NCBI GenBank assembly: GCA_017499595.2
Contig: CM038998.1
Coordinates: 4,340,001-4,404,000 of the forward strand
Source: Psilocybe cubensis
Lineage: Eukaryota
Direction: 5' to 3'
DNA length: 64,000 nt
Positions 1 through 21,468 of this stretch are shown piece after piece. The stretch's first letter is position 1. Each line of letters begins with the position of its first letter. The notes beneath the pieces were generated by a model. It was not told the DNA's origin. It was given only the letters and a program-made list of their open reading frames with translations, and searched no databases. Made by a program: the position numbers and the translations under genes.

Positions 1-20
1 ACTCGCTCATAACTCCTTTA

Positions 21-1163
21 GTTAATGTAGCAATTGCTATGGCTGTCGCAGTTGCGATAGTGGTATGGGACTTGTAAGAACGTTTCGTCTGACATATAGG
101 ACAGCGATGAGCTTACATTTCGTACTCAAGCCTGTCTATGATTCCTACGGAACGTGAACTTTTCCGTGAGAAAGACAGTAAGCTATGGAGAGCTCCTCCA
201 ACATGGGCGTAAGTGTTCTCAGCACATGTTATTACTTTGAGTTTAAACTAATTAATATGGGTAGATTCATGGTTCTTCGCTATTCTGGGGTTTTCGCTCT
301 TGTTCCGGGACTTTTTTTCACATCCCTGCAAAATCAGCACTGTCAAGTGGCTGCTTCCTTAGGCGAAGTTGGAGTCGTTCTCGTCACCGGATCAGCTGGG
401 CTTATTTTTGCTTATCGTGTGTTCGCCATCTGGCGCTACAACAAGACTGTGATGGTTCTCGTATCGGTCTTGTATGTTTTCAATGTTGCCTGTTGGGTAC
501 GTCTCGTTATCAATTGAAAATTTCCAATGACTGACTGGAGGTACAGATCGCAGTTGGTTCACAGCTCCGAGCGTCCCAGGGTCCTCCGACACCTTTTGGC
601 TCTAACTGCAAGTTACACCCAGTCCCTGATTGGGATCCCCTGCCATTTGCTTCATCCGTGTTATTCGATACCACCGTGCTGCTCCTTACAATAATCAAGA
701 CCAGAGAAGACAAAATCAAGAGCTCTGCCATTGGAAATCAAATATTGCGGGACAATATCATTTACTTCGTCATTCTTTCCGTCACCAACATCGTAGTTTT
801 GGTCATAAACTGTCTTGGCCCTAAATTTGACAACATCAAGCCTGTCACTCTTCCCTATCCTACCCTGATGACTACTGCTATGGGTACCCGGTATGTTTTA
901 GGGGTACCATCAATTATCCCCGTTTATAAGCTAATATCTGGCGTAATAGCGTTTACTTGAATTTGAGGCTGTATAACAAGAGACGCCACGAGACGTCGAC
1001 TCTTCCTCAGGTCACTTCGGGCGACACCATGCGGTTCAAGACAAACGACGTACCAATACCTCTCAACTCCATGAGGAGTGCTACCATGGTAGTTCAGTCT
1101 ACCCATGTGCAAAAGGACTGGGACGATACCAAACTACACACTGTCACCACTGAGAGCCTGTGA
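21..1163 (+). CDS. Multi-pass (7TM-like, DUF6533-type) fungal membrane protein, 5'-partial, multi-exon; paralog of 17076-18509
   Basis: Spliced exons give ...AIAMAVAVAIVVWD / MIPTERELFREKDSKLWRAPPTWA / FMVLRYSGVFALVPG...; GT-AG introns at the same positions as the paralog; stop TGA at 1161-1163; first exon lies outside the window. Confidence 0.75.
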
Positions 1164-1943
1164 ACTGGTGTATACCAGTAGCGTTTGTATTTAGTCATTA
1201 TTTATTTTTACTTTGTAGCGGAAGGACTGTAATATCATATCTTTGTTGCGCTTTATTATCGCACAATGTCAGATATAACTTGTATCTGGAAGTTCCTGGG
1301 AGATGAAGCCATTATGGAGCTACGAGGCGATAATGCCAGTGAGTTGTTGCTAACCAGTCTTGCCCCCCAGGGAAAATGATATCATTTTTTGCAAACAGGC
1401 GCATCAAAACTGAACATCCAAACGACGAAGAGTATGTAGCCTAAAGGTAACCGTAAACCTCTCAGAATCGGTTAAAAGATTCCCGTGTCCCGAAGGCCAT
1501 GCGCTCCGTCATTCCGCAGCTCACCGTCTGGACAGCCGCCGTTCGTTACAGATGCATTAAATCCCGATATCAAGCTCACAGAAAAAAGTTACATGCTCTC
1601 TGGGAGCTACTATGTTTTCACGGCTGAGGCGTCAGCATTATCCAGAAACTTGAAGTCAGAATCTGATGAACAACCGATTCGGGAGTTGCCGCTTGACTTG
1701 GTGGAATGAATCTTCGTCCAATAAAATTACCAAAGATCTATAGAATTTGTCCAGGTCCTGGCGTCCATATGATGAGCGATTAGTTTATAAATTTGAATGG
1801 AGTAGACTTTACCTTTTTCCACAACGCTCGGTGTTCCGCAAGAAGCAACTTGAAAGGATGCTTGCCGTTTACGGCTGGAACTGTCCGAATCGGGGTTCGA
1901 AAATTGATTCGATTGTATCACGTGCCCTGTGGTAGGCTGCTAG

Positions 1944-4331
1944 CACGGCGGGCAAAAGTGCTGACTAGTCAGCCCGGGTGTTGGTCTGACCAGTTACGTG
2001 ACGGGTTCGTGACGGGTTCCGTGACGAATCAATTGACCAATCCATTGCACGTCGGGATTTTCCGAATGTAAAACTAACTTGTACGGAAGACTCGTATCTT
2101 GCACAGATAGTCCAAGTAACTCCAATTAGAAATTTCTCTTACATTTTGAATAAAAGATGAACTTTAAAGTTGTCTTATACATTAAGTACCAGATCAAGGT
2201 GTCAGAATGAACTCCAGTTTGAGTGTAAATCAAACTGTAAGAGAACTGGAAGAAAAAATACGAGAAGTTTTTCCAGTTAAACTGGAAGACACGCTGCAAG
2301 GTTATTAGTCAGATGATGTAGCGTAATTACCTACCCGATTTAGCTGGAAATCAGTCTTATATTTTGATTTTGGCCCTGATATTAACATATAACACGTCGG
2401 GATATTCAGAATATGAAGTTTCCACGAAGTGGGTAATCGAACATTACAAAATATTTGAAATATAATAAGGTTTTAAATGATGCAACACACTTTAAATACA
2501 AAAGAAATACATATGTTAACTAAGATTGTAGTTACATGGCAACATCCAAATCTTTAAAGAATGTTGTGATAAATTTTATACATAAAGTACATTTCAAGAA
2601 TGACTTGTATATTAAATCTGAATCATCCTCTTTGAGACCAAGATATTTTATATCAAAGTTGTCCTTGAAAGGAACTTTGTATTTTAAATCCATTGTAACT
2701 TTTGAATGCCTCGTGAATGTCGAAAAAAATTTAAAGTACAAAGGTCCTTTGTGGGCTCACTTAGACATAGCATGTTTTGCACCATCTGTTGTTCATAGAC
2801 ATTTGAAATACAATACTCCCTTACATGCTGCCACATATATTGAGTTTGTTACTACTTACAAAGGTCCTTTATATTTTAAATATACAGGAACCTAATATCA
2901 GTACTTTGTATGTTATAACATATCTCAAATATGTTGTTCCAATATATTCTGCGCCCGCTCATTGCCCATTGAGTGCCCAACAGTCGCCCACTATAACAGC
3001 CACTGCGTGCCCACCTACATCTGGCATTGAACACCATTTTGCAGGCATCAATTCTATAAACATGTTCAATGCCCGCAAAAGAGATCTAGGTGGGCACGCA
3101 GTGGCTGTTATAGTGGGCGACTGTTGGGCACTCAATGGGCAATGAGCGGGCGCAGAATATATTGGAACAACATATTTGAGATATGTTATAACATACAAAG
3201 TACTGATATTAGGTTCCTGTATATTTAAAATATAAAGGACCTTTGTAAGTAGTAACAAACTCAATATATGTGGCAGCATGTAAGGGAGTATTGTATTTCA
3301 AATGTCTATGAACAACAGATGGTGCAAAACATGCTATGTCTAAGTGAGCCCACAAAGGACCTTTGTACTTTAAATTTTTTTCGACATTCATGAGGCATTC
3401 AAAAGTTACAATGGATTTAAAATACAAAGTTCCTTTCAAGGACAACTTTGATATAAAATATCTTGGTCTCAAAGAGGATGATTCAGATTTAATATACAAG
3501 TCATTCTTGAAATGTACTTTATGTATAAAATTTATCACAACATTCTTTAAAGATTTGGATGTTGCCATGTAACTACAATCTTAGTTAACATATGTATTTC
3601 TTTTGTATTTAAAGTGTGTTGCATCATTTAAAACCTTATTATATTTCAAATATTTTGTAACGTTCGATTACCCACTTCGTGGGAACTTCATATTCTGAAT
3701 ATCCCGACGTGTTATATGTTAATATCAGGGCCAAAATCAAAATATAAGACTGATTTCCAGCTAAATCGGGTAGGTAATTACGCTACATCATCTGACTAAT
3801 AACCTTGCAGCGTGTCTTCCAGTTTAACTGGAAAAACTTCTCGTATTTTTTCTTCCAGTTCTCTTACAGTTTGATTTACACTCAAACTGGAGTTCATTCT
3901 GACACCTTGATCTGGTACTTAATGTATAAGACAACTTTAAAGTTCATCTTTTATTCAAAATGTAAGAGAAATTTCTACTTGGAGTTCTACTTGGACTATC
4001 TGTGCAAGATACGAGTCTTCCGTACAAGTTAGTTTTACATTCGGAAAATCCCGACGTGTTGACTAGTCAGAAGAGGTCACAAAGATGTTGTCACGCTGAA
4101 CGATTTATTTCGCGCAGTTACCATTCAATCTTATTTCGATAAACTCATTTACCAATACTAACCAGAACCCATTCACCAATAAGTACTAACTAGTGTGACA
4201 ACGTCTGTGTGACATATTCTGACTGGTCAATGGACTGGTCAGTTGATTCGTCACGGAACCCGTCACGAACCCGTCATGTAACTGGTCAGACCAACACCAG
4301 GGCTGACTAGTCAGCACTTTTGCCCGCCGTG
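1944..4331. mobile_element. Non-autonomous TIR element (CAC...GTG termini, CMC/CACTA-like), ~370 bp host MITE interrupted by a nested insertion
   Basis: Left end CACGGCGGGCAAAAGTGCTGACTAGTCAGCCC at 1944, reverse complement ending at 4331; 3-bp TSD TAG at 1941-1943 and 4332-4334; left TIR resumes at 4062 after the insert. Confidence 0.9.
2048..4058. mobile_element. Fold-back (long-TIR) non-autonomous element nested in the 1944-4331 MITE
   Basis: Arms ~2048-3017 and ~3087-4058 are near-perfect reverse complements; termini CACGTCGGGATTTT / AAAATCCCGACGTG; 3-bp TSD TTG at 2045-2047 and 4059-4061; mirrored ORFs in the track. Confidence 0.93.
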
Positions 4332-4515
4332 TAGCTATGGCAGGCGCGTCTTTCTCTCCGATCTCGCAAACATAGACAAGAGCCTCAACGCGCATGGCGC
4401 AATTACTGCAGAGAAACACTGCGCGCTTTATTGGCGAAAGTGTCACAATATGATGTCGGATACAAGTGGAATTAAAGTTACATTTAATATTATACAGATT
4501 GTTGCATCTCATAAG

Positions 4516-7500
4516 TTAAACAATTCCCAACTTCTTTGCCTCCTCCCATTCTTTAGGATACATCTTCTGTGCTGCAGCCGGAAACAAGCTCAGTCTGGCA
4601 TATCCGCTACGTATTAAAGGATCCTCTATGGCCATGAGGGCTTGAACCTTGCTGTTCGGAGCAACGTGAACCTTGACCAAGGATGGGTTGTCAAACTGAG
4701 GCAAGGGAACGACAGGCTTCTCCAGTTTGGTTGTGAGAACGTAGGGAATAGTGTAGCGGTCGTTATCAATCTTGAGCGTATTTACTCGATGAGTGGTGGC
4801 AACGAGCTTCCCACCAGTAAGGCGCATAAATTGCATTCCTTGAAGAATTTGATCAGCACAAGATTGAAACACCAAAAACTTCCATACATACCAACGTTGC
4901 ACACAACGCCTCCTTCGACCATCGGTATATCAATCCATTGACCACTATGATTTTGAACCTGAAGACCCGGCCTTGATTGTATCAAGCACGTCAGGAACGT
5001 GGAAGGATCGCGATGCTCGTGCATTCCGTTGACAAAGCCCTCGCGTTCCGAAGCTTTCATCTCCGGCGTGAGGGGTAGATAGTGCCAAAGAGCGGCATTA
5101 AATTCATGTGGGGAAGGGAAATAGTCGTCAATGACAGAGTAGGGTACTTCCAATAAGGCAGCAATGTGCTTGTTTAGATCCACATTTAGAACACGATAGC
5201 GCTCGAAGAGGGCTTCAAGTTTCGCACGGAAGCCAGGAAGATCAGCGTCCTTGGGCCATTGATTTGGACCTGAATATATTTTTAGTGACTGACTAAACTA
5301 AACTTCGGTTTTGAAAAACACATACCCTCGTGAATGCGGAGCCAGAAAGGCACATCTGGACTGTCGTGTGCTGGTCGCTCAGCGCCGAAGCGATAGGCCT
5401 CAGCATAAGCCTGGAACACAATATGAGAAGTATGAAAAATGAACGAGTGATATCGAATACAACCTTATGAGGTCCCTCAATCTTATCACATCGGAAATGT
5501 CCGCGCAGAGAGGGAGAATTATCAGTAGCAAGAGAGGCCTTCCATTCTTCTGGTTGTTGGAAGAATTGCGCAGCGAGCTGGAGAACTTCGTCCTGGAAGC
5601 TCTGCTCGAATCCTGGTACGTTAACAAAAATGCCAAATCCTACATCCTCCAGGGCAAACTTCAGTTGCTTGAAGTAGTCCGTAGGATTTGATCTGGAGAG
5701 GGAAAAATCAATGATTGGAACAGAGTCAAAATTCTGTCGGGAAGGTAGTGCAGGAGCGGGAGGAGGAAGTTGCAGAAGCTCGGCACGATGAAGAGCGTCC
5801 CTCATCTTAGCGGCGAAGGACTCGACATGGATTTCTGAAATCATAGTATAGTGCTCGCCATCGACGTCAATCATCTCGAAGTTTTTGCCAGAGTAATCTT
5901 TCCATTTGGAAAGTCGATCACGCTTATATTCCTCTCTTGTTCCCATCGAGGGAAGAGGAATGGCGCAAAACACGGTGGTCAAGGCACTCTCGACACAACC
6001 GGAAGGTACATACGTTCGTCCTGCGTCAATATAAGAAAGTATCAAAAAATTCAGCGAGTAATCACCCACCCGTGAAGGAAACATCATATGCGACATTGAC
6101 CCAGCGATGGAAGTACTCGATGGGCATGTTGAGCTCTGCCAACCTTTCCTGGTTGCAGTGCGCAAAGGTCCACTCAATCAGTTGCCTTGAGTTGGCAGGT
6201 TCCAAGTCTGAGTCACCACCAGGATTCTGAAGAAGAAGAGCAGTTTTGAAGTGCTCGAAGTCTTCTGACCGGATGAGGGCCAGGAACATTGAGAGATTAA
6301 GGCTAATGAAAACAGTTAGTCGACTGTCATATCGTATAAGGATTGTAACAACTTACAGTGTTTCAACCCAAACCAATTCCTTTACTCGGAACTGAATAAA
6401 AGGCGGTAGGTTCATCACACCGAGCCATGGTACAACCTTGCCCCTCTTCTCCAAAAGCTTGCCTATTTCAAACGCGATACCTGCACCGAAGCTATATCCT
6501 GCAAGGTAGTACGGGCCTGAGGGATTGTTTTTGACGATGGCATCAGCGTATATGTCGACCATCTCTTGCATAGACGACGGAGGTGTCTCCCCGGCTTCGA
6601 ATCCCCTTGCACGCAAGGCATAGACTGGTCGATCATCGTTGAGGATACGAGCCAGATTTATGAAGATGAGAACTTCCCCGACACCAGGGTGAACAAGGTA
6701 AATGGGTGGCTTTGAGCCCTGAGGGTTCAGGCAAAGAAGAGGGTTGTACGGGGCTTGATGATCATTGCCTTGGTTAACCAATTGCTGAACGTAGGTAGAA
6801 ATCTCAGAGACGATAGGACGTTGTAGGAGTTCGATAGTAGGAATATTAACGATACCAAAATGGTCCTGTAGGAACGTCTTGAGACGTATGAGATGCATGG
6901 AAGAAGCGCCCATATCAAAGATATTTTGGGACAGATTGACAGTTTCCAGTTCGACCTCAAAGACAATCGAAACGCCTTCGCAAACAACCTTTTCCAACTC
7001 AGATTGAGGAGCAGATGATGCGGCACGTGCTTCCTGTCGTCTAGCTGAAGCTTCACCGATACGCTTTTCGATGACGGCAAATTTGTTGTCACCGTACGCC
7101 TTGGCTAGCGTGATACGAGATACCTTGCCCAAAGCAGTCTTGAAGAAGAAGTTTCGAGGGAGAGGTAGAATGACATGTGGAGCTTGAGAACAGAATGCAG
7201 CGCATAGATTTCGAATGCGTTGATTGGTATCAAGAACAGACTCAAGTTGTTCGTCTGTCAACGAGGTGATAGTGTCTTCCTCGATAGAAACGCCGTTATG
7301 TTGGTAGAAGATTGTATACGTCTCGGTATCCGCTCCCGGTAGCCTAAGAGCGCATGCGAAGATACACGAAATTTCCACGTTGTCGATATTTGAGTCGGCG
7401 ATGTAGTGTTCGATGTCCACGCATGGGTGTTTAACTCCGTTGACGTTGATAACATCCTTGTGTCGGCCGAGCATGTGAACGTTCCCATCATCGTCGATGA

Positions 7501-8947
7501 GTGCCAAATCTCCAGTGATAAACCATCCATCCGATGTGAACGATTCATTAGTAGCCGTTGGATTGGAGTAGTACTGCGTGAAAATAGCAGGCCCGGACAT
7601 CTGAAGTTGGCCAACCACTCCCTGAGGACAGGGAAGCGATGTAACCGGGTCCATAACCCGAACGTTGCCGCCGACATGAGAGGTTCCGATGGAAAGATAT
7701 GTTGCGCCTTTGTAGTCAGCAACGTTCTTCAAAATCGGAAGGTTGTTGTAGATAATACCGGCCTGCGATGACTGTCAGTATTGTTTCAAAGGAAATAAAT
7801 ATAGAAGAAACGTACGCCAGTTTCAGTCATCCCAAACGCGGCCCTCAGAGTTGTTCGAGGGGCACCGAAGCGTTCAATGATATCGCTGAATTCGACAGCG
7901 GTGGTAACAGGATTGGCCTCTCCTCCAGTTACCATAACCCTGAGCGCTGATAGGTCTGGGCCTGGCTGCCCAGCTGACTCTATAGAGGCAGCACTAAGAG
8001 TAGCATCGCGGCAGATTTGGGCTAACAGAAAGTTTGGACTGAAAGTGTGAGTGACGTGGTACCTGGAACACCAGTCAAGAAGGTTTCTTGGCTTGCGAAT
8101 GATCGCGGAAGGGTTGACTTGATATTGACTATGAATTGATACGTTAGTCATATCATATAAAACCATCTACAAGATATCGCTTACGATGCGCCCGCCCAGA
8201 TGGCGTGCAGGTGGGCTTCCGTGACATTGGCGACATGGTCGAAATTAATCCAGTTGAGGAAGATGTCGCTGTCCTTGGTACCGTGTTTCAAGGCCTTCCC
8301 TCTGATGGCAGCCAGAACCATAGAATGTGGTAGCATCACACCCTTGGAGTTCCCAGTGGATCCAGATGTAAGCATAAGTGCAACTATCTCGTTGGCTGAT
8401 GAAGTGCGGGTAGGATATATCTGGGCGTCGAGAGACGCGTCGAAGGATGTCATATTTAGAATAAGCTCGACGTCAATGGTACGAGACTCCGGAACCAGCC
8501 TCTGGACAACTTCGAGAGCGGCAGCATCAGAGATAAAGGTGGGACTTCCGAAGAGATTCTGGAGATGATTGAGAAGGAGGGATTGACGACTTTCATCAGG
8601 GTGGAATGGAGGCAGAGGGCAGTATGGGATGCCAGCTGCAGTCGTGTATACTCCTTAAGTTGGGACTAGAGCAGACAAAGACAGGACTTACCGAAAGCGC
8701 ATCCCCAGAACACGAGGATGTGCAACCGTTGGTCGTCGAACTTGGAAACGACGATGTCTTTACCACCGCCTCGAAGGCCTGAAGAAAGTAGTGCCCTCGC
8801 AATGCGCTGGGCAGAGTCAACGAGTTGTTGAAAGGTGTAGGAGCATGTAACATCTCCAGATTCGCCAAGAAAATTAATGGTACTGGAGGATGTTTTGGCG
8901 CGGAGAGCGAGAAGCTCAGTAATAGTTGTGGGCCCTGTTGATTCCAT
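4516..8947 (-). CDS. NRPS-like quinone synthetase-type enzyme A-T-TE with fused C-terminal 2OG-Fe(II) dioxygenase (PpaA1-like architecture), multi-exon
   Basis: A domain: LMLTSGSTGNSKG, LNWINFDHVANVTEAH, GMTETG, GWFITGDL, TALGKVSR. T domain: FDMGASSMHL. TE: VHPGVGE, GYSFG, GEHYTM. Dioxygenase: VPIIDFS..GFG, HEHRD, GLQV, TTHRV, DRYT. TE and DIOX_N lie in one uninterrupted ORF (5293-6177 track). Confidence 0.9.
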
Positions 8948-9737
8948 GTTTGGAGCTGCAAAAGCAGAGTCGCGGTCTGAGGTTCATTCTTTTAAAACGC
9001 GAGGGCTTTAAATGATTCATCAAACGGATCGGTTACTTTTCTTTGATGACGACCAGAAAATCTTATCTGGCAGTGATGAGTGAAAGCTGAGCGGACCCTG
9101 TACGCCCTGGCCAGCCGCCCTGATGTCCCAAAATACATGTGGGCGAGATGGAAAAGGATGGGAAGTCGTAAAAAAGTCTTGAGAGTACCGTACGCGCGAT
9201 TTGCGACCTAATTCAAATCAACATCAAACACCATCTCAAACACGGAAACAGCTGGAAACGGTTCACAGTTACCCAATTTGTAGACGTTTTGCAAGCAAAT
9301 TTATGTGCACGATCGTATTGATGGGTTCGGCTGGGGGGACGGCAGTCGGTAATCCGATTTGGCCGCGCTTAAGCTGCATCAAATGTTACATTGGTGCATT
9401 GCCTACAACATCCGCATATTTTTCCCAAGGACCCTCACCATGATCGATTGTGTCGCCAGATAGGCTCAGTTGAGTCGGGCCCGACACAGCTTGGGAACGT
9501 GCTGACTTATTTGCTCAACACAAGCGCTGACAGAGAGGGCGCCCGAATGCAAGTATACGTTGTGCCTGGGTTTTCCAAGTACACGATATTGATTTTATCA
9601 CCTCAATTCGGATATGAATATTGCGGATATGCAGCGAGTCGTAGGTGCAATGACCAGCCTTTGATGTTAGTTTAGTAATTCCCTATTGAAATTGCACCCT
9701 TGATATCAAAAAATTCTTTTGATTTCCACCCACCACA
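8948..9737. promoter_or_regulatory. Divergent (putative bidirectional) intergenic promoter region between synthetase and O-methyltransferase
   Basis: Head-to-head starts ~790 bp apart; no specific binding site established. Confidence 0.4.
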
Positions 9738-11419
9738 ATGTCTCCCATCGACCTCGTAAACGATCTTCAGAAACTTGTTGTTTCCACGTTTTCCGGCGAG
9801 GTTACCGACCCGTTCGAAGTGTACAAGGCAAAGCACAAAATCTCCGATCTTTGTCTTGCACTTTTGCGATCTGTCCAAGGCCCTGAAGAGTATACGGCCA
9901 TCTTAGCTGGTACGATAGCACAGAGCATCACAACTGATAGGCGCTGATTGTTGCCAACAATGATTCTGTATAGAATCATGTCAAGAGTCCTCCGCTTTGA
10001 ACGTTATCACGTCTCTGAACGTAGCAGACCACATCGCTGAATCTCCAAATGGTCAGCTGAGCTTGACAGAACTCAGTAAGAAAGTCAAGGCAGATGAGCA
10101 ATACCTTAGTGAGTATCTATAACTGCTTTCAGTATGTTTCTCATGGCGTTCTCATTCGACAGGTGTTATGTTGAGCTCGCTTGCGTATCACGGCTATTTC
10201 GTTGAAGTTGGGGGCTTCGGCTCTCAGGTGTACGCCAATAACGAATTCAGCAACATTCTCCTTTCAGAAACCACACACGCCAAAGATGGAAAAAGCATGA
10301 AGGATGCAGTCGGCCTGGCGTAAGCATGCAGCTTAATATAACCTTCCTACTAAGGTTGTTGAGAATCCTGAAGTGCAGACGATGGAGCGAAGTCCACCAC
10401 TCGTCTATTGGAAGCTGCCACAGGGAAAGGAAAGGAAAGCTCAAAAACAGCAGCCAACATTGCGTTCGGTTTCGATGGCAGCGTATTCCAGTGGATGTCC
10501 TCTCCAGGGAATGAATGGCGAGGAAAGAGGACTGCAAAGGCAATGGTCCAACTTCACGGAATGGCTAATGGAGAGATAGGCGAAGGTATGTCCGTAACTT
10601 TTTGCTTTGCGTACTGGTTGTAACGGTAGGGTGTAGATTATTCCTGGGAGAAGCTCGCGACGCCAATTATCGATATTGGAGGGGGCATCGGATCCTTTGA
10701 AGGAGTAGTGCTTTCTGCTCCCAAAAACAGAGACTTGACCTTCAAGATTTTTGATATCGAAAAGACAGTGGAACACGCGAAGAAAGTAAGTGTTTCGGGT
10801 ATTTTTCTGCGATTTTCTGAACACTAGTTCCCGAATGTCAGGTATGGAGCGGAAAGCCACAGTGGATGCAGGAACGTGTGTCGTTTATCGCAGGCGATTT
10901 CATGCAGTCCTCTCCCGCCGACAGTAAGATCCCCACCCCCGCTGAAGGCGCAGGCACCTACGTGATCCGTCATGTCCTGCACGATTGGAACGATGACCAG
11001 GTATGTGATTCTCCTTGCTCCGCGTGAGGGGACACAGTTTACAACATACACACATCCACAGGTCGTCACCATCCTTACACACGTTCGGAACGCTATGCTC
11101 GGATCACCGCCGCCAACCACGTCGACCCCACCGCCTAGACTTCTCCTCGTCGAGATGATGCTAACTGAGACCTCGTCGCGTTTCACGAGAACGACTTCAT
11201 TACAGCTGCTTTCCTTGAGCGGCGGCGTGACACGCACAGAAGGTATGTCTGTCCTTTCCACATTCACTGCAACAAGATGCTGATCGCCCCGCTCGTGTCT
11301 CGCGCCTTTCCCCAGTCCAATTCCGCAAGCTTATCGCTCAAGCAGGGTTCATTGTCGAGAATGTCACCGCAGTCAGGGGCGTAGATCTGATTGTTGAATT
11401 GAAGCCGACGCCACTTTAA
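9738..11419 (+). CDS. SAM-dependent O-methyltransferase (Methyltransf_2 / COMT-like fungal family), multi-exon
   Basis: YPWEKLATPIIDIGGGIGS (motif I), KIFDIEKTVEHA, IAGDFM, YVIRHVLHDWNDD, LLLVEM; last exon ...DLIVELKPTPL*, TAA at 11417-11419. Confidence 0.9.
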
Positions 11420-12444
11420 ATGACCTGTTATGTCGCCTGTACAGTACTTCATATGATCTTCAATCCCATTAAAATAATAAAAACCCCATCGGCCCCCGAA
11501 ATGGGAAACGAACATGACCCGAGAGGAGTCAAGACCATTGGCGTTGACTGCTATTTAGCCCGACACGTCGATATGTTGCCTTATGTTGCTTTGTAGGTGG
11601 AGTATAAAGTGCGATGCCCGTGTTGCCCACACGGAACCTCGACGCGGTCAGATGGACGCGCCTTGACTGACTTTAATTACGCGCCGCATCGGCTTCCGGT
11701 ATCAAGCGGTTGGAATCGTCGCGTATTGAATAATTAAATTTGAAGGATAGGGGAGAGTTGAATTTGGTGAAACAACTGTTGATAGGTATCGCCAATACGT
11801 CAGGTAATCGCGATAATGGGTTGAATTGCCGTGACGAAGCCCAAATCATGCATTCCACATTGAACCTTTTGGTTAGACTGAATCGGCATCTAAACCATAA
11901 CCATCCCACTTGCAACAGAAGCATGAAATATTACCCAGTAAGATTGCGGCGAAGGGCACTGGCAGGGTCGTCATATATGGCGCATATATTTGACAACGCT
12001 GAGAGAACTCGGGGAGCCCATGCCATGGCGCGACATCCCAGTAACCGCGATAACCGTGAAATGAAGTCTTCGACAAAAAACGCGAACCTGAAATTACCCT
12101 TCCGACGCCGCTTTGAAGTCTTGCAAAACGTAAAGAAAATTCAAACCCGCCAGACCACCCAATGCTCGGGTATATATCGTGACCAAATCCTCGCCGTTTT
12201 CTTCAATAGTAGACATCGCTAAAAGACTATCATTTGATTAAGAAACAGTTGAACGTGCGATAAAACTAACTGTTACGGGACGAACATTCACCGTTATGTC
12301 GGCGTGTTTGGATGAGGCCCTTTGACAAGTCCATATTTGTGAAGAGCCGCACCACGTATGGTCCCTCTAATCCTCCGAGCGCGCCAGAACATGAGAGAAT
12401 ACAACTCCTTGGTCATACACAGTCGGTGTTCGGGAATCATAGCC

Positions 12445-12897
12445 TAAGGCTCCAACCGTTTCGTTTGTTTATCGTTTGTAAACGGTATATACCATTTACC
12501 GTTTCGTTTAGTTTATGAGCCTTGCTAAACAGTTTACAAACGTTTATAAACGGTTCAAACGGTAACAGATTTTTGTGCTAAAGTATATCTCTTTTTTGGA
12601 CAATATTGGGTGCGTATTACATCAAATGATTCATCTTTTATTCTTTACACCAAACTAACTCATTTGCACTCTTTTTTTGGTCCCATTTTTGTACCAATTA
12701 GGTGCCGACTATTATCTTCCTTGGCAAATCGGCCGCATTAGGACAAATGATGCGTTGAACGCTGTTGAACGCCTGCCCTTGTAGCCACCCTCGAGCTTAC
12801 TGTTTACAAACGTTTATAAACGTTTGTAAACTGTTTATTACCGTTTCCGTTTAGTTTGTAATAAAATTTAAACGGAAACTAAACGGTTGGAGCCTTA
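12445..12897. mobile_element. hAT-type MITE (453 bp)
   Basis: TIR TAAGGCTCCAACCGTTT / AAACGGTTGGAGCCTTA; 8-bp TSD TCATAGCC at 12437-12444 and 12898-12905; many subterminal AAACG/CGTTT repeats. Confidence 0.92.
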
Positions 12898-13672
12898 TCA
12901 TAGCCTGATGGTTGGTTCAACTTGGTTGGGAGTTTTTTTTAAGCATGTTCTTTGTCATGGACGGTGAGACAGCGGAGTTTGGATTTTTCTTCCTTCATGC
13001 GCAGTCAAGACTCAATAGCGTGCAATGACAACTTGGAGAAACTTATTGGCGGATTCTGATGGGCACGGAGAGAGGTTCCATTACCGTGATAAATATGTAC
13101 CATTACGGTGAGTATACGCTATTTCATTTGCCTTGAAATTAAGCCAACATGGCAAAAGGGCAGTAGTAGGTCAGTTTCAACTTTCCATCGACATCATCTT
13201 CCGCTTCGAAGCTTGTAAATATATTTGGTTCAACAGCAATTCAGATGTGCTCTCTTGCATTCGGGCCCTCGGGGGCATTATCATTGAGTTTTCCAAAGAA
13301 AAGTGAGCACTGAGCGTAGACCTGAGCTGTGAATGTTGACCGTCGGACAGCGGACAAGGAAATTCTATAAATAGAACTTAGAAAAGGCGAAGGTAGTATG
13401 GACCTCTTTCTTCAAACAAGACTGCGATACAACTGCCATAAAAAATGCATTATAAAAACAAGAACTATAGAATGATAAGCTGTACAACGTGGATCTCAGA
13501 AGACCCTGCCACGCCACCCCCACTGTCTAGTGCTTATTCGAACAACCCCGCCCGGCGCCCACAGGGATACTTTCGCGCCCATTACGTTCCGATCGCTATC
13601 CCCACCTAGTGCCAGCGCGATCACCCAATATCCTATCTCCCTGGTATCTCCAGTACCTTATCAGGCAGGATC

Positions 13673-14677
13673 TCATGCACCAGGTTGCTTGCGCACATTT
13701 CCGGAGAAATCTAATGGGCCAAATTGCCATGCAGCACTGTGTTTCCTTGAGAACCACCACCGAGCTGCCCATCGGGCGGGTGCTGGGAGAGGAGGGAACC
13801 TAGACTCGCCCTTAGAATGGGAGTGCGCATCAGAGACTATAATACATACCAAGGGGTAGCAGGGTTCATGCACACGATGGTCATGGGAAGAGTGGTGTGG
13901 AAGTCAATGTCAGCAAAGACAATCTTCTGGAAGTCTTTGTCGATCGCTTTGAGTTCCTGCTCTGTGAAAGCAGCTTTGATTTTACTGCTCTCCAGTGTCG
14001 GCAGTTCCTATATTTAAGTATGTTATTTTAGATTGGCGTTTTGACAGAAGAAAAAAAGTTACTGACGTGAACCAAGTGCTCGTACATAAGGTCCCCAAAC
14101 GAGTTGATCTTCTCGAGGAAAACATTTGCGTCGTACTGCTCCTTGCCGGCCTGGACGTCCCTGCACCACTGCGCAGTCGCGTCAAGTTGAGGAACAAACG
14201 ACGCGTGCTCATCCACGTTCGATGATAGTGAGCCGGCACCGAGCTTTTTTTCAAGAGTTGGGAAATAAAATGTCTCTTCCACGTTATGATGGTGATGAAT
14301 GGTATCCAGCTAAGAATAAAGAGAAGAAAGTTAACATGATAGCAACGGACATTAAATGATCTGAACCCGCGGCGTACCACTGTTAGACAAAACACCATGA
14401 AAGGTTGCACCTTCTCAGGTGTGATATGTGGGGCATGCGCAACAGCAGCATTGATGCCTTGGATAAAGACGTTATGGGCAGCTGCCATATTGCTAATTAT
14501 CCGTGGGTGAGTTCTCAGAGTGTATTCATGGAAAGAACTTCCACCTACATGGCCTGGTAATCGAACATGTTCGAAAACTTGCCAGGTGGCATATCTGATA
14601 TTCGAAAAGGTTATGAGCAGTGAATACCCTTTGAAAGCAACAACGTATGTACCTTGGAGAGGGTATGGGGCGGGCAT
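13673..14677 (-). CDS. Hemerythrin-like (HHE cation-binding domain) protein, multi-exon
   Basis: MAAAHNVFIQGIN, IHHHHNVEETFYFP, NVDEHASF, HLVHE motifs typical of fungal hemerythrin-like proteins; ends ...GNVRKQPGA*. Confidence 0.8.
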
Positions 14678-17075
14678 ATTGGATGTGTGGTGGAAGTCGG
14701 AGGCAGACGTCTATCTCGTCCAGTACGCTGGGGTATATATACAGATCGTGACCAAGCAGACGCCCAAGAAAGTTCTAAAGAACGTTCAGGTGGAGGAAGA
14801 GAGCTAACGAATCATTAAGAAGCTCGTTTACGCTATGATATTTTTGGCCCTTTGATCGTGATCTGAAACTCGTGCAGGCCCCTTGAATTTGTAAAAGACA
14901 CCTTGTCGTTGGCTAGGTAGGGTACGCATCAGTCCAGATTTACACTAGACTTGTGCCGGCGTGGTCGCCGGCGAACAATACCTCCATACTAGAACCTCCC
15001 GTCGGCCGGCGCGACGCCAGACGTCAAAAAGGAAATGCCAACTTTTTGAGTAAGTATGAGTCTTCGAACAAGTTGTAATTCAGGTATGCTCAGGAAAACC
15101 ATCAGAATGAGCAATCAGTCGAAAAACGACGTCTTTAATTTGAAAGTTGGAGTGGCTTCTTTGTTATTACTGACTGATACTCAACGTAGCGCTTTGTACA
15201 GCATATCATACGGATCGTGCAAATTAGAGTCTGGGTCCTGGGAGAATTGGAGAATGTATATAGTTTAATATGTGCTATGAATACAACGCTTTCCTGCATC
15301 AGTATCACTGAAGCTGTCGTGTTCAGACATCTGTGAGTCGTACCAGTCCCTATAGTCACTCCTATCTGTAGTGTTCTCTTGCTAGTGGAATCTGCGAGCC
15401 TTATCACCGAGGTAGTGATAATTTTAGTAACAGACGGAAAGAATTGCACCGTATGCATTTCCATCAACGCTTTTAGAAATGGAAACTCGTGGTTAATGCT
15501 CAGCTCGACGGAGGCATTCGTAGCAAGTATCGAGACCTGCATCAAATAGATCAAAGTCCCTCGTATGGTTGTTGATGCTAGTGTTTCGAGTGTAGTTGCT
15601 TTTGTATACCTCGATCGAGAACCCGTAGACAATCAGTGATGTACCAAGAATTGTACTGACTGAGATCAGGCCCATTAGCGAATGTGTAAAGATAACCCCA
15701 CTTTTTGGCTTTGATAGAAGCAGAAGAAGTGCAATATTTGATGTTCTCTGACTCTTCAAAGAGCAGTGTTCGAATATTTTTTGAGTCTTGAAGGTGGTTG
15801 CCGAGAGCAACCGTCGAGCTCGGATCAATCATTTGGTCTGTGTTCCGTCTGTCGATAACCTGTTCGGATGCGATCTGTGGGATTCGGGAGGGTGGAGTTG
15901 TGAGCCTTGAACATAGACTGATGCGTTTTGACCTAGTAGCGTCAAGGAAACCATGTCAACAGCAACTAATGAGCATTGGGAGAGAGGTTAGACGTCAAAC
16001 TATTCAAGTCAAGAGGACCAATGATGGTGTTCTACAAATGTTTTGGCACCAGTGGGAGAAAAGGAGTGTGTCACCGTCACTATTACATGTGACTTGTCTA
16101 CCAAACTTTTCGGCACGTGCCACGTGTTGGGAGCTGGCTTCATTCAAAGCGCGTATGCTCCATCCGACTTTCTGCCGCATCCCAAGCCGATTCCAAGAAA
16201 TGCATGAACAAATGGAAGAAAAGGCTAAAACACGATGTTCTCATGACAGCTCCGGCACATTGGGCCAATCGCGCTTTCGCAGAGATAGTCTCAATGGACG
16301 TACACTTACAATTCATCTAGGAGCCTATAGGGGTTCCTCTCAAACAATCAAGTCGGGTTGATTCCAACGCTGATCAGAAAGCTGCCCTTTACGGTACAGA
16401 CTGATAGCATAGCCGCATGGCGTCGGAGGGCGTGGGCGTTTTCAAGCTTAAATTTGTCCAAGTGGCCCAGAACCCGTGAACGAAGTTGCTTCTGAGTTTC
16501 AGGGGGGAACGTCTTACTGCCGCCTCATACTGTAACTCTGGAGGTTACTCCACGCCGCACGGGCGCTATACCGTATGTACTTGCTCGTCTTGTATCTTTG
16601 GCGTCCCGTCGCACTCTCGCGTAGCTCGTGCTTGCATCTAATCACGGTCGATATAGCGGACCGTAGCACGAGATTGATGGATCGCTATATCATTCGGTGA
16701 GTTGAAGCTTCAGGCTTCAAGCTTCACTGAAATAAAACGAAAGACAGGAATACGGTGCTCCAGACACCAGTGACAGTTCATTTCATGCGATGCGGTAAAA
16801 TTCTCGCAATGCTATGTGGCGCCAGTCTCAATTTCTATCGGACGTTGGCCCGGAAATACGGACATGAACTTAAGGTGCGTAGACACCGGGCTTCAAATTG
16901 TGTGTAACACGCTCCGAGAATAGAACTTGATAGAGATTACAACGGCGCGATCGACTATATCGGCCCCATCATTTTTGGGAATGACATACCAACCTGGACT
17001 TCTCTTTAAATAGGTAAGCCCCGTAATCTTGAAATTTCTTTGCCATCCTACCTTTCCTCGATTACCCAGCGCGCT

Positions 17076-18509
17076 ATGTCCGACGCTCCTCCTCCTCCTC
17101 CTGCGGCCCAGCCTGGATCCATCACTGTCCCTCTCCCTCCTGGGATGACTGTGGATCAATTCCTGGCCCTCCAAAAAGTAGTCGGTGAGTGTACAAGATT
17201 TTAATACTGTCGCGCTATGTTTACGCTCTATGCAGTAAATCTGGCTATTGCTATGGCGGTCGCAGTTGGAATCATTATCTGGGATTTGTGAGTGCTGATT
17301 CAGTAAATCAGTATTTGATTCTGTCAACTCATCCTTGATGCAGCGTCTCAATGATCCCTACAGAGCGAGAGCTCTACCGCGACAAGGACAGAAAGCAATG
17401 GAAAGCACCTGCAACCTGGGCGTATGTGGATTCTCTTTCAATTACTTTTGATTATCAATCTCACGACGGAATCGGGACTAGGTTCATGGTGCTGCGCTAC
17501 GCCGGAATCCTCGCGCTGTTCCCCGGCCTGTTCTTTACTTCAATACAGAATGACCACTGCCAAGTCACCGCCTCGGTTAGCCAAGTTGGCGTCATTCTCG
17601 TTACGGGTTCTGCAGGTGTTATCTTTGCATACCGAGTGTTTGCAATCTGGCGCTTCAACAAATTCGTCGTAGGTGGTGTTTCGTTCCTGTGGGTGTTTAC
17701 AGTCGCTTCATGGGTACGTTTTTTCCATTTCGCCGTTTTCGCTTACAGGGCTGCCCGCCTGATACAAGATTTCTAATCACTCGTTTACGACAGATTGCAG
17801 CAGGCTCGCAGCTCCGTGCATCTCAGGGCCCCCCTACCAATTTCGGGTCTAATTGTATTCTCCACCCTGTCCCTTCGTGGCAACCCCTTCCTTTCGCGTC
17901 GTCGGTGTTGTACGACGTTGTCGTCCTCGTTCTCACTCTCGTTAAGCTGCGCGGAGACAGGATCAAAGCGTATTCTATCGGCAGTCAGATTCGAGGCGAC
18001 AATGTTCTGTATTTCGTAATTGTGACTGCGACCAATATTGCTGCATTGGTTATCAACAGTCTAGGCCCAGAGCACGACGACATCAAGCCCGTCGCGCTCC
18101 CCTTCCCAACGCTGTTAACCGCAGCCATGGGAGCTCGGTACGTTTTCTTGATCTATTTGGCTTTTGTTATTAATTTTACTGACCTATTCTCGTCCCGGTT
18201 AGTGTATACATAAATCTTCGAATGTACAACAAGAAGATCAACGGTGAACTCTCGGGCTCCATCCCGACACACAGCAGCGGTACAACGAGGTCTGCTGTGG
18301 AGGACACCATCCGCCTGAAGAACAGCAACGGCGTCGACGAGAGCATCCGCATCCGCAAGCCCGGTCCCTCCGACGCAATCCCGCTCGGCTCAATGAAGAA
18401 CACAGTGTCTGTGCACCAGCACCAGTCGTCCTTCAGCGATGGTGACCACTGGCAGGGTCCAACTAAAGTCAACAACGACTACCGGAACATAAACCGCGAC
18501 AGCCTGTGA
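17076..18509 (+). CDS. Multi-pass (7TM-like, DUF6533-type) fungal membrane protein, multi-exon; paralog of 21-1163
   Basis: MSDAPPPPPAAQPG...; MIPTERELYRDKDRKQWKAPATWA, FMVLRYAGIL, GSNCILHPVP, DIKPVALPFPTLL; strong similarity and identical intron positions to the first gene. Confidence 0.8.
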
Positions 18510-21468
18510 GGGCTCTGCTCTACCTTCACCCGGATGTTCAAATCCTCTTGGCGGCATCGCCTTGCCCCCCGTGGTGGTGGTGGTGGCTGATGTCGCATTT
18601 CACATTTTCTTCACTGTCCATCATCCATCTAATTTATTAAACTCTCATGATTCACGACCCTTGTTCCCCTCGATCTTGCTATACATTACGAACAATTTCT
18701 ATTCTACCTCATGCACCCCCTCCCGTCGCCTTTTTTGGACCCCTCGGTTTCTGTCTCTCTCAATCTTGTCATTCTCTTTTTGGGCGGGGCGCTGATGATG
18801 GTTTGTGGCTCTTTTTACCTTACTACCTATTCAAAAAGTTACGATGGAACGCAATGGAACAGTTAACAAATCGCAGCCTGACTGGATTCAACAATACTTT
18901 CGTTCTTTTTTCATGTCTTGTACATACTTAACACATAAAACCCCTACTATTAGTGTTTTTCTTGTTGTGCTTACTCCATCTGTCTCCCCAGTACATCATC
19001 ATCCTTTGTCATACTACATAGTACGCGGATAATCATCATGCGAATGAATATATTTCGTGAAATTACGTCCTGGAACTTGGAAGTGCTTCGGAGAATTCTT
19101 TGCGCCTCAGCGGCTCAGCCCCACATTAGAAGCTTATTTATTTTGCGCTGCGAGAGTGTGGATCCTCAGCGCCCATACGTACGTATGCGGTATGGTCAGT
19201 CTGAATCCGGCACCATAGGCTAACGCTGTATAGCAGCGATGCGTCTGATGATACATAATAAAATAGCCCAGATCCACAGCAGCTAAGAACAGAACCTGAA
19301 ACGGCTAACAATGACATAGAATTTACAGATCTGCGTACGTACTTTGCGGAATGCGCAAATACCAAACCTGATTGCGCCGCGGCGGGGAAAGGCGCGGACG
19401 GCGGACGCGTGGACGGTGGTTTGACGACGACCGACCGGCGACGAGCTCGAGGCCGCAAATCAATTGGCCGAGATCGGTGAAAATCTCCTCTCCCTCTCCG
19501 TGCGTTGTGATGCCACTAATTTGTTATTCAGTTCGATACGCGATATTGACTGATATTGATTTTTTTTAACGAGCGTACTGCTTGAATCCCGCGTGGCGAG
19601 ACGCATACATAATATAATAAAATTTTGGAGTAATTTTATTTTCGTTGATTTCGAAAGTCTTCTCTATCAGCTCAAGTGAAACGTTTCAAGAGCGAATAGT
19701 CATTTTTGGCAGTTGTTTTCTGACTGATCTTGCAACTGTGAACTTTCAAGTGAAACGTTTTAACAGCGGATTTCACATGCTACTGCTGTCGACTTGCAAA
19801 TTAGATGAAGGCTGGCTAGGCTGACGCGCACTTTGCTGAGTGTCTCAATATTCAACCAACAAGAGATATCTCATGAAATGTCGTATATAGCTCTCTGAAT
19901 TTCTGAACGCGACCGACCGCATGCTTGAAGGACACCAATCGGTTTCAACAATTGATTGAATCTCGTTTCTGTTGACAAAGTGCATCACGGCAACCGCCGC
20001 AGTTCACATGACAATCTTCAATCTCCGCGTTAATACTTCCTGTTGCCGCAAGATGCCGCTTTGTTCGTCCAAACTTTCTTGGTGATACTTGTTCGTTCGT
20101 TCCACCATCTGATGAATTTGTTCGATTTTGCTCATGCAACAATGAAATCAGACTCTGTCTACTGAAAAGTATCACTTCTTACATCAGAATGATCAAAATC
20201 ATACTCAAACCGTCGCTGGATTCAGATTATGATATTTACCTTTCATCTGCACTGATGATTCTTCCAGGGCAAGCGCTGACTTTGCCTGAAGTGACCCTCG
20301 GAGTGTATCCAAGCTCATGAGGGATATATGCCGTATGGAACCTTCAAAACTGAAATTCTCCCACAAGGTATTTTTTTTTACAATTTTGACCCCCTTCAAG
20401 GCGCATATATTCACTTTTTTTGCCGTCGTTAACGCTCTCTGGACGCCATTTGACTTGTTTTGCAGACATTTTTTCTTATAAACATGGCTACAGTCTAATA
20501 CAAGCTGCAGGACTGATGCTGCAATATCTAAAATTCAACGGTATTCGTACTCTGATTTAAAGCATTGTAGGTTTATCCGCCATCATGCTGGGCGTCTATG
20601 GGGTTACAATACAAATGATTATCTTTGATCAAATCTTCTATCCAATACTAACAGTTCTGATAATCGTCTAATTTTTGCTCTCAGTCCGGCCATATGTGGA
20701 TGGGTCTAGAGAAATCTCGAAGTTGCATGTTCATTGTCCATCTTGAAGCGCCCTACAATCAACGCTAATACAGGGAAAGACCTCGCGAACACCTACGCTG
20801 GGTTGTCAATAATTTCATTTGGAAGGGCACCCGTGATCAACGAAGAACAATAGCAGCCAGGCAAAAGTTGCGATTCTCCAGTGGACTATCGCAAAATCAA
20901 ATACTTATTCCACCCGAACTCATCCTTAGCATACTAGCGTCCAGAGCTGTCCAAACGCTCGTTTGTTCACCAAAATGGCCTGTGGCCCTCCCTCCTTTCA
21001 TCGGCGGCTTTGATATTGACTGTATGTCTTGTAGAGAAAGTAGAAGATCTACTGACTGTGTGCCTTCATTTCAAGCTATTATTATGCGGGAGTAATAATG
21101 CTCTGATTGTCATAAAGTCCGGTGGCTGTGCGACTCTGGGCCACAAGACAAAGAAAAGGGCAGCCGCATCGTTGGAAGGTCCCAACAACGGCGACGACGA
21201 CGGACAGACGACAAACAGGGCCCACAAACACCTCTGCACTCGACCACAATCTTCCCGGGCTGGCCTCGAGGCTTGATTCTCAGACTAGATATACGGGACA
21301 GCGGCTCTTTCCTTTGTCGCCTCGTTGCGAGTTCACTTTACCCCATCAAAGTCATAAATAAGAATTGGCTGAGTGACTCTGGGTTCCTGGGAGCCTTTCT
21401 TTTAAACAACCATCTCCCTCTACCCTTTCTCTTCAATCCGCCCCTCTCCCTCCCTTTTTCTTTACACC

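Follow-up and report, generated by a model that had tools for sequence, protein, structure and literature searches.

The ppaA1 locus and its three genes

The 64,000-nucleotide stretch of Psilocybe cubensis DNA described here (contig CM038998.1 of assembly GCA_017499595.2, positions 4,340,001 to 4,404,000; referred to as the window) carries between positions 4516 and 14677 a polyporic acid synthetase gene, ppaA1, an O-methyltransferase (OMT) gene and a gene for a hemerythrin-like protein. These probably belong to a conserved tailoring cluster built around ppaA1 and directed towards an O-methylated, further oxidised derivative of polyporic acid, with the hemerythrin-like protein as a recurrent member. 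A reading of the letters alone (the sequence-only reading) had placed the three genes correctly, and its outer coordinates and its spacings of 790 bp and ~2.3 kb agree exactly with the spliced gene models, the second gap, from OMT stop to hemerythrin stop, being 2253 bp.

The synthetase gene lies on the minus strand (8947..4516, with the ATG at 8947 and the stop codon at 4516-4518) and has nine exons (8947-8692, 8635-8185, 8128-7816, 7762-6357, 6302-6070, 6020-5464, 5410-5326, 5269-4892 and 4838-4516). Its 1333 aa product matches a P. cubensis database protein letter for letter (P0001) and is identical at 1330 of 1333 residues to a deposited 'polyporic acid synthetase' (P0279). This is the already published ppaA1, with the same A-T-TE-D domain order, and the core gene is not new; the description by Seibold et al. 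2023 of a 4432-bp gene with eight introns and a 1333 aa product fits the gene here (PMC10316625). Pfam matches are to AMP-binding (residues 34-405), PP-binding (602-665) and Thioesterase (693-792), followed by the C-terminal Fe(II)/2-oxoglutarate (2OG) dioxygenase domain, D (residues 986-1333, encoded with the stop codon at 4516..5724 on the minus strand), with matches to DIOX_N (55.5 bits, cut-off 27.3) and 2OG-FeII_Oxy (49.1 bits, cut-off 23). The phosphopantetheine-accepting Ser628 is kept in all 33 aligned homologues, and the large exon is 50% identical to HapA of Hapalopilus and 49% to CorA.

The models of ppaA1 and the OMT gene were fixed using spliced contigs together with homologues. 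Contigs of runs X1 and X2, neither of them recorded as RNA, skip GT..AG introns and so behave as transcript assemblies, which as contigs cannot rank expression. They back the ppaA1 introns, and a single 2261-nt spliced contig spans from the T/TE exon to the DIOX_N exon, so that the fusion of A-T-TE with D is read as one message. Separate, deeper spliced contigs (seen at 5330-5424, with three differences at 5365, 5377 and 5378 and both ends loose) are confined to the 85-nt exon 5410-5326; they most likely stem from the paralogue ppaA2. The GenBank accession of ppaA2 is KAH9487375, and ppaA1, the OMT and the hemerythrin-like protein have the numbers ending in 379, 380 and 381; three further genes are annotated in the interval from ppaA2 to ppaA1.

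The OMT gene is transcribed divergently from ppaA1 (9738..11419 on the plus strand, ATG 9738, stop at 11419), and the 790 bp separating the two start codons (8948..9737) presumably act as a shared promoter. Its eight exons (9738-9909, 9974-10108, 10163-10319, 10374-10585, 10637-10785, 10842-11000, 11062-11242 and 11316-11419) encode 422 aa (the model equals P0166) and align along the full length of homologues. Pfam matches are to Methyltransf_2 (76.8 bits, cut-off 22.3) and Dimerisation (31 bits, cut-off 25.6), and the invariant or near-invariant columns among 20 family members are D238, G240-G244, H322 (followed by D323 and W324) and E359; we take D238 with G240-G244 to be the glycine-rich S-adenosylmethionine motif and H322 to be the catalytic histidine. 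The best Protein Data Bank (PDB) match by sequence is GedA (7wh9, E 1.7e-22), followed by MmcR (3gwz, E 6.6e-21, covering residues 55-405), both of them distant. MmcR methylates a hydroxyquinone, which says little about the OMT substrate here.

A second annotation of the OMT (P0282, 435 aa) uses another acceptor for the last intron, 11243-11315, which inserts 13 residues following position 388; it is the 422-aa form that homologues match. The sole X1/X2 contig over the gene is short and of low depth (~10472-11002). It includes the letters at 10799 and 10812, which fall within the predicted intron 10786-10841, and is therefore unspliced there, through pre-mRNA, intron retention or carry-over of DNA. 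A spliced OMT transcript was not found among the X1/X2 contigs, which says nothing for or against expression. Splicing control has been described for corA in Terana (PMC9603100).

The hemerythrin-like gene lies on the minus strand (14677..13673, ATG 14677, stop at 13673) and encodes an HHE-domain protein of 237 aa (the model equals P0278) in six exons (14677-14653, 14594-14549, 14492-14378, 14309-14067, 14007-13850 and 13799-13673). All five introns are taken from spliced contigs, and the transcript contig reaches 13446. The protein matches PF01814 (32.3 bits against a cut-off of 25.3), and its nearest Atlas clusters all carry PF01814. The window contains no second copy of D, of the OMT or of the hemerythrin-like gene.

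Linkage of synthetase and OMT genes across species

The OMT belongs to a discrete family, in which full-length members reach at least 441 bits in a profile search; the nearest OMT outside it has 140 bits and 26% identity. Species were counted by comparing by hand the synthetase search with the OMT profile search (120 matches listed). Both a family OMT and a clade-I synthetase occur in 37 species among the matches listed, and in 30 of these the two are on the same contig, the criterion being contigs of equal length. Positional numbers were compared in 19 species chosen out of the 30, five by locus tags and 14 by GenBank accessions, and we infer adjacency of genes from adjacency of numbers in the genome records. 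The synthetase and OMT numbers differ by 1 in ten species, by 2 in five, by 3 in two, by 4 in one and by 10 in one. The sequence-only reading had proposed synteny of the pair as a check on a shared pathway, and the pair is linked, at a distance of 4 or less, in 18 of the 19 species. Linked pairs span Agaricales, Polyporales, Gloeophyllum and Punctularia and occur with fused and with unfused synthetases (the latter in Trametes polyzona and Cubamyces lactineus), and other genes intervene between the partners in Hypsizygus, Lyophyllum, Termitomyces, Collybia and Leucocoprinus.

Some of the counts pull the other way. The partners are not on equally long contigs in seven of the 37 species (Gautieria, Trametes gibbosa, Cubamyces BRFM 1775, Mycena floridula, Hermanssonia, Agaricus bisporus and Arthromyces), of which Hermanssonia and A. 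bisporus represent different assemblies and Arthromyces has contigs of 4 and 9 kb; the Phanerochaete carnosa pair is 10 accession numbers apart on a scaffold with three synthetases; and 14 synthetase species, including Hapalopilus and Terana (with entries only from 'nr'), have no family OMT among the 120 OMT matches listed. The reverse case, a family OMT with no synthetase among the matches listed, is found in nine species. These absences are weak evidence, because both searches rely on shared words and concern the matches listed only.

Basidiomycete pathway genes are often scattered (PMC9603100), and the three genes could in principle be chance neighbours with no shared function. We regard this as highly improbable, given that the linkage holds in nearly all the species compared and also in metagenomic contigs that are independent and differ in gene order (see below). 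The OMT thus does not appear to be a chance neighbour of ppaA1, and there is good support from sequence comparison for its being a dedicated partner of clade-I synthetases, methylating polyporic acid or a reduced derivative. The proposal in the sequence-only reading of a compact pathway gains strong support from this conserved linkage.

One of the closest published counterparts is the cor locus of Terana caerulea (Lawrinowitz et al. 2022, PMC9603100), in which a clade-I polyporic acid synthetase is likewise clustered with putative OMT genes, and the P. cubensis locus is a variant of this type. It differs in that CorA lacks a D domain and that there are three OMT genes (CorB-D) as opposed to one here; the cor locus also has two neighbouring frames, corE and corF, to which no homology is assigned (PMC9603100). 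The allantofuranone (alf) cluster of Allantophomopsis lycopodina also combines a polyporic acid synthetase, an OMT (AlfD, 433 aa) and an iron enzyme that modifies a ring oxidatively. However, this is an ascomycete, the substrate of AlfD is a reduced, dehydrated terphenyl supplied by the dehydrogenase AlfC, the dioxygenase AlfB is an extradiol ring-cleavage enzyme and not an Fe/2OG oxygenase, and the alf cluster as described has no hemerythrin (PMC12105029). No AlfC-type dehydrogenase gene adjoins ppaA1.

The D domain and the hemerythrin-like protein

Of all parts of the fusion, D is conserved most strongly. When 33 fused proteins are aligned, D averages 65% identity to PpaA1, TE 59%, A 48% and T 40%, and the corresponding averages over all pairs are 68, 60, 56 and 46%. 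The iron triad is intact in PpaA1 (H1186, D1188 and H1243) and is accompanied by R1254 and T1256, which we take to be 2OG-binding (the RxS/T motif). Among the 33 fused homologues H1186 is kept in 30, D1188 in 32 and H1243 in 31, and R1254 and T1256 in all. The triad deviants are one gapped model and two Leucocoprinus proteins (P0020 and P0023) with Tyr at both triad His positions and D identity down to 44-46%, whose D domains look degenerate within otherwise conserved synthetases.

The A-T-TE-D architecture is the majority one in the clade and is not unique to PpaA1, since 41 of the 59 best fungal synthetase matches carry DIOX_N and/or 2OG-FeII_Oxy. A 1080-aa model of Phlebiopsis gigantea (P0026, PHLGIDRAFT_229718) ends in a segment of ~135 residues with 43% identity to the first part of PpaA1 D; both clade-I synthases of P. 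gigantea are called canonical A-T-TE, and the supplement names PHLGIDRAFT_229718 as one of them (PMC10316625). A family OMT has the accession number neighbouring P0026.

Among solved structures, thymine 7-hydroxylase (T7H; 5c3o/5c3p, E 9e-10 with a stand-alone D exon from locus L003, see below) is the nearest to the D family in sequence. The same comparison is used in PMC10316625, where the replacement of the T7H substrate-binding aromatics by P1189 and V1260 in D is cited as arguing against substrate binding. These two residues are themselves kept, in 30 and 29 of the 33 fused homologues respectively, which suggests a family-specific pocket and not decay.

When metagenome contigs were scanned with 20 aligned family OMTs, 28 loci emerged; of these, L027 and L028 (31-35% identity) were too distant and were excluded from the synteny count. 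Near-identical loci were grouped as A (L002-5 and L013), B (L010-11) and C (L009 and L015-17), and the loci were searched by local tblastn with PpaA1 A-T-TE, the D domain, the OMT and two hemerythrins, and then by Pfam scans. Eight are informative in having flanking sequence of 3 kb or more (A, B, C, L008, L012, L021, L022 and L023): a hemerythrin-like gene is present in four, a stand-alone D in three and a synthetase in two. A further locus, L019, has the P. cubensis arrangement of a synthetase and an OMT in head-to-head orientation.

The stand-alone D genes are those of groups A, B and C, in each of which a separate gene, with homology to D over the full domain, lies ~700 nt downstream of the OMT. 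Translation of the upstream open reading frame in L003 and L011 shows that this D has its own Met and no TE remnant upstream; in groups A and B it keeps all five ligand residues and is 62-82% identical to PpaA1 D in aligned segments. The arrangement argues that OMT and D work together, and it also shows that the pair can be maintained where no synthetase gene is near. Directly upstream of the OMT and stand-alone D lies a ~950-aa gene with long exons and no Pfam family (L003 6077-8924, L011 6881-9694 and L017 2279-5092), which has no counterpart in the window.

Whether D is catalytic is disputed by the only experiments on it. The sequence-only reading had included an oxidation step in the pathway, and published work, with polyporic acid as the sole substrate on offer, saw no activity of the dioxygenase domain: mutants of H1186, D1188 and H1243 and a D deletion still yield polyporic acid and the same follow-up products, the product of CorA is also unchanged when it is fused to D, and the authors, who call the domain unique, judge it catalytically inactive (PMC10316625). 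These data, together with the absence of a synthetase within 10 kb of the OMT-D pair in L003 and L011, where the pair sits amid housekeeping genes, tell against a D that acts in this pathway. The unchanged products would fit a structural or regulatory relic, with all chemistry done by synthetase and OMT, and the two aberrant Leucocoprinus homologues point the same way. A relic is nonetheless unlikely in our estimate, in view of a D that is better conserved than any other domain of the fusion, keeps its cofactor and pocket residues and occurs as an independent, intact gene beside the OMT. Sequence conservation gives moderate support to D being an active oxygenase whose substrate was missing in single-gene experiments; a downstream intermediate as substrate would explain the lack of a D-dependent product from ppaA1 alone in Aspergillus.

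The hemerythrin-like gene was only speculatively included in the pathway by the sequence-only reading, and its membership gains support from four of the eight informative metagenomic loci and from an Arthromyces gene model (P0182), in which hemerythrin and OMT are annotated as one protein. Its position and orientation vary. The order is synthetase (-), hemerythrin (+) and OMT (+) in L012; hemerythrin and then OMT in L023; OMT, P450 and then hemerythrin in L008; and L021 combines two OMTs with an unfused synthetase, a hemerythrin transcribed divergently from it, a gene of the FAD phenol-hydroxylase type and an MFS transporter. L022 has no synthetase, hemerythrin or stand-alone D, and only a Helitron-like fragment. 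The cluster-linked hemerythrins are of two types, that of P. cubensis (also in L012 and L023, which look closely related to one another) and a second one (Arthromyces P0182, L008 and L021); a P. cyanescens protein (P0283) is 87% identical to that of P. cubensis. H30, H69, H70, E73, E74, H97, H140 and E144 are invariant in an alignment of three sequences that includes the Arthromyces type, and are candidate metal ligands.

Further attempts to place the protein gave little. A search with its 81-aa exon matched nothing in the database except the protein itself, a sequence search found no meaningful PDB relative, and an AlphaFold2 model (mean confidence score, pLDDT, of 45) was too weak for a fold search, possibly because the underlying alignment held two sequences. 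Its four long predicted helices span 19-46, 49-85, 94-115 and 123-144.

An alternative is that the gene encodes no pathway enzyme at all and is a co-located stress, oxygen or iron protein, or one for self-protection against a redox-cycling quinone. The two types are just 24% identical to each other and the other four informative loci lack the gene, which both lessen the case for membership; fungal HHE-domain proteins form large families in Ascomycota and Basidiomycota (Atlas clusters), the placement differs between loci, and the literature searched contains no link of hemerythrin to terphenylquinones and no enzymatic role for the fungal family, a review table listing a hemerythrin-like protein in one fungal cluster without function. 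Yet recurrent linkage in two sequence types is hard to obtain by chance for a small gene, and even as a protective protein it would be functional within the cluster. We consider a non-enzymatic role a serious alternative, if the less probable one.

Candidate pathway and surroundings of the cluster

In the tailoring cluster proposed here, the A-T-TE part of PpaA1 joins two phenylpyruvate molecules into polyporic acid, a step established by expressing the gene in A. niger and A. nidulans (PMC10316625). The COMT-type OMT would then add a methyl group to an enolic or phenolic hydroxyl, either on polyporic acid or on its reduced terphenyl form, as its conserved linkage suggests. More tentatively, D may act on a downstream and probably methylated intermediate, not on polyporic acid itself, and the hemerythrin-like protein may, speculatively, be a di-iron enzyme of oxidative tailoring or else give protection from the redox-active quinone.

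The sequence-only reading had named O-methylated terphenylquinones or pulvinates as products. An O-methylated terphenylquinone or terphenyl is plausible, because the scaffold is known in print from PpaA1, and the OMTs of the cor locus and AlfD are precedents for the methylation; nothing points to pulvinic acids. That reading also found no aminotransferase in the window, and Pfam scans of stop-to-stop open reading frames likewise contain none, with the limit that short-exon genes could escape them; they covered 22 pieces in 4.5-16.4 kb and 146 of the 177 frames of at least 88 aa across the window, with most of the other 31 lying within the 22-piece set.

Findings on the fungus itself speak against an operating pathway: P. 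cubensis gave no detectable polyporic acid in fruiting bodies or mycelium, labelled phenylalanine fed to it led to no labelled product (PMC10316625), and no methylated terphenylquinone from Psilocybe is reported in the literature consulted. The cluster could therefore be evolutionarily real but silent or vestigial in P. cubensis, with an active synthetase and no end product in normal growth. The paralogue PpaA2 gave no product in Aspergillus, quantitative reverse-transcription PCR showed only marginal regulation (PMC10316625), and repeats flank the locus to the left of ~4330 and as a 461-bp insertion. On the other hand, none of the three reading frames is broken and all match homologues from end to end, the D catalytic residues and invariant OMT columns are kept, correctly spliced contigs derive from ppaA1 and the hemerythrin-like gene, and P. 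cubensis cultures did convert fed polyporic acid (PMC10316625). On balance silence is somewhat unlikely, and we favor the functional tailoring cluster.

A bolder version is that D, OMT and hemerythrin form an old tailoring module across several Agaricomycetes orders that would turn polyporic acid into a new methylated, oxidatively rearranged metabolite, with the hemerythrin-like protein as a new type of di-iron oxygenase and a candidate for the oxidative ring contraction or cleavage of terphenylquinones. This we rate as a long shot. The mechanism of terphenylquinone ring contraction has been called unclear (PMC9379647), which makes a so far unassigned iron enzyme in the cluster worth testing.

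The synthetase itself is known, and what is new here is its conserved context: the OMT, a D unit that is under selection and can be separated, and the hemerythrin-like gene. This combination was not found in the literature searched. PMC10316625 treats the PpaA1 enzyme alone; its main text and three supplement files mention neither 'methyltransferase' nor 'hemerythrin', and the main text contains none of 'adjacent', 'neighbor', 'locus' or 'aminotransferase'. As the sole study of PpaA1 expressed that enzyme by itself and concluded that D does nothing, the context offers an explanation, in that the partners, and hence the substrate, would have been missing, and the published negative on D is now directly re-testable. 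The synthetase-OMT arrangement, often with a hemerythrin-like gene, is found in cultivated or well-studied mushrooms (Agaricus, Hypsizygus, Lyophyllum, Termitomyces, Trametes and Mycena), for which no polyporic-acid-derived product was found in the literature searched, and a widespread cryptic metabolite family may be awaiting discovery. If the proposed cluster is correct, it would also provide the first pathway context for fungal hemerythrin-like proteins.

To the left of ppaA1, positions 1-4330 of the window are an AT-rich stretch (GC 0.34 at 2001-4000) with no Pfam matches. DNA contigs of runs X3 and X4, which are from the same organism, break at ~4236-4334 with several different loose ends, and repeats therefore probably lie between ppaA1 and ppaA2. 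In the gap from the OMT to the hemerythrin-like gene, the 461 bp at 12436..12896 have raised word depth and break contigs; the X3/X4 contigs join 12435 directly to 12897 and lack the segment, which is a strain-polymorphic repeat insertion. Beyond the cluster, a six-exon gene on the plus strand (16844-18970) with spliced-contig support encodes a protein of 373 aa that matches no Pfam family and has several hydrophobic stretches. The rest of the window, which is intron-rich fungal DNA, contains ordinary, non-pathway genes, among them those for a PBD-domain protein, Chs7, an S10 peptidase and an E2 acyltransferase.

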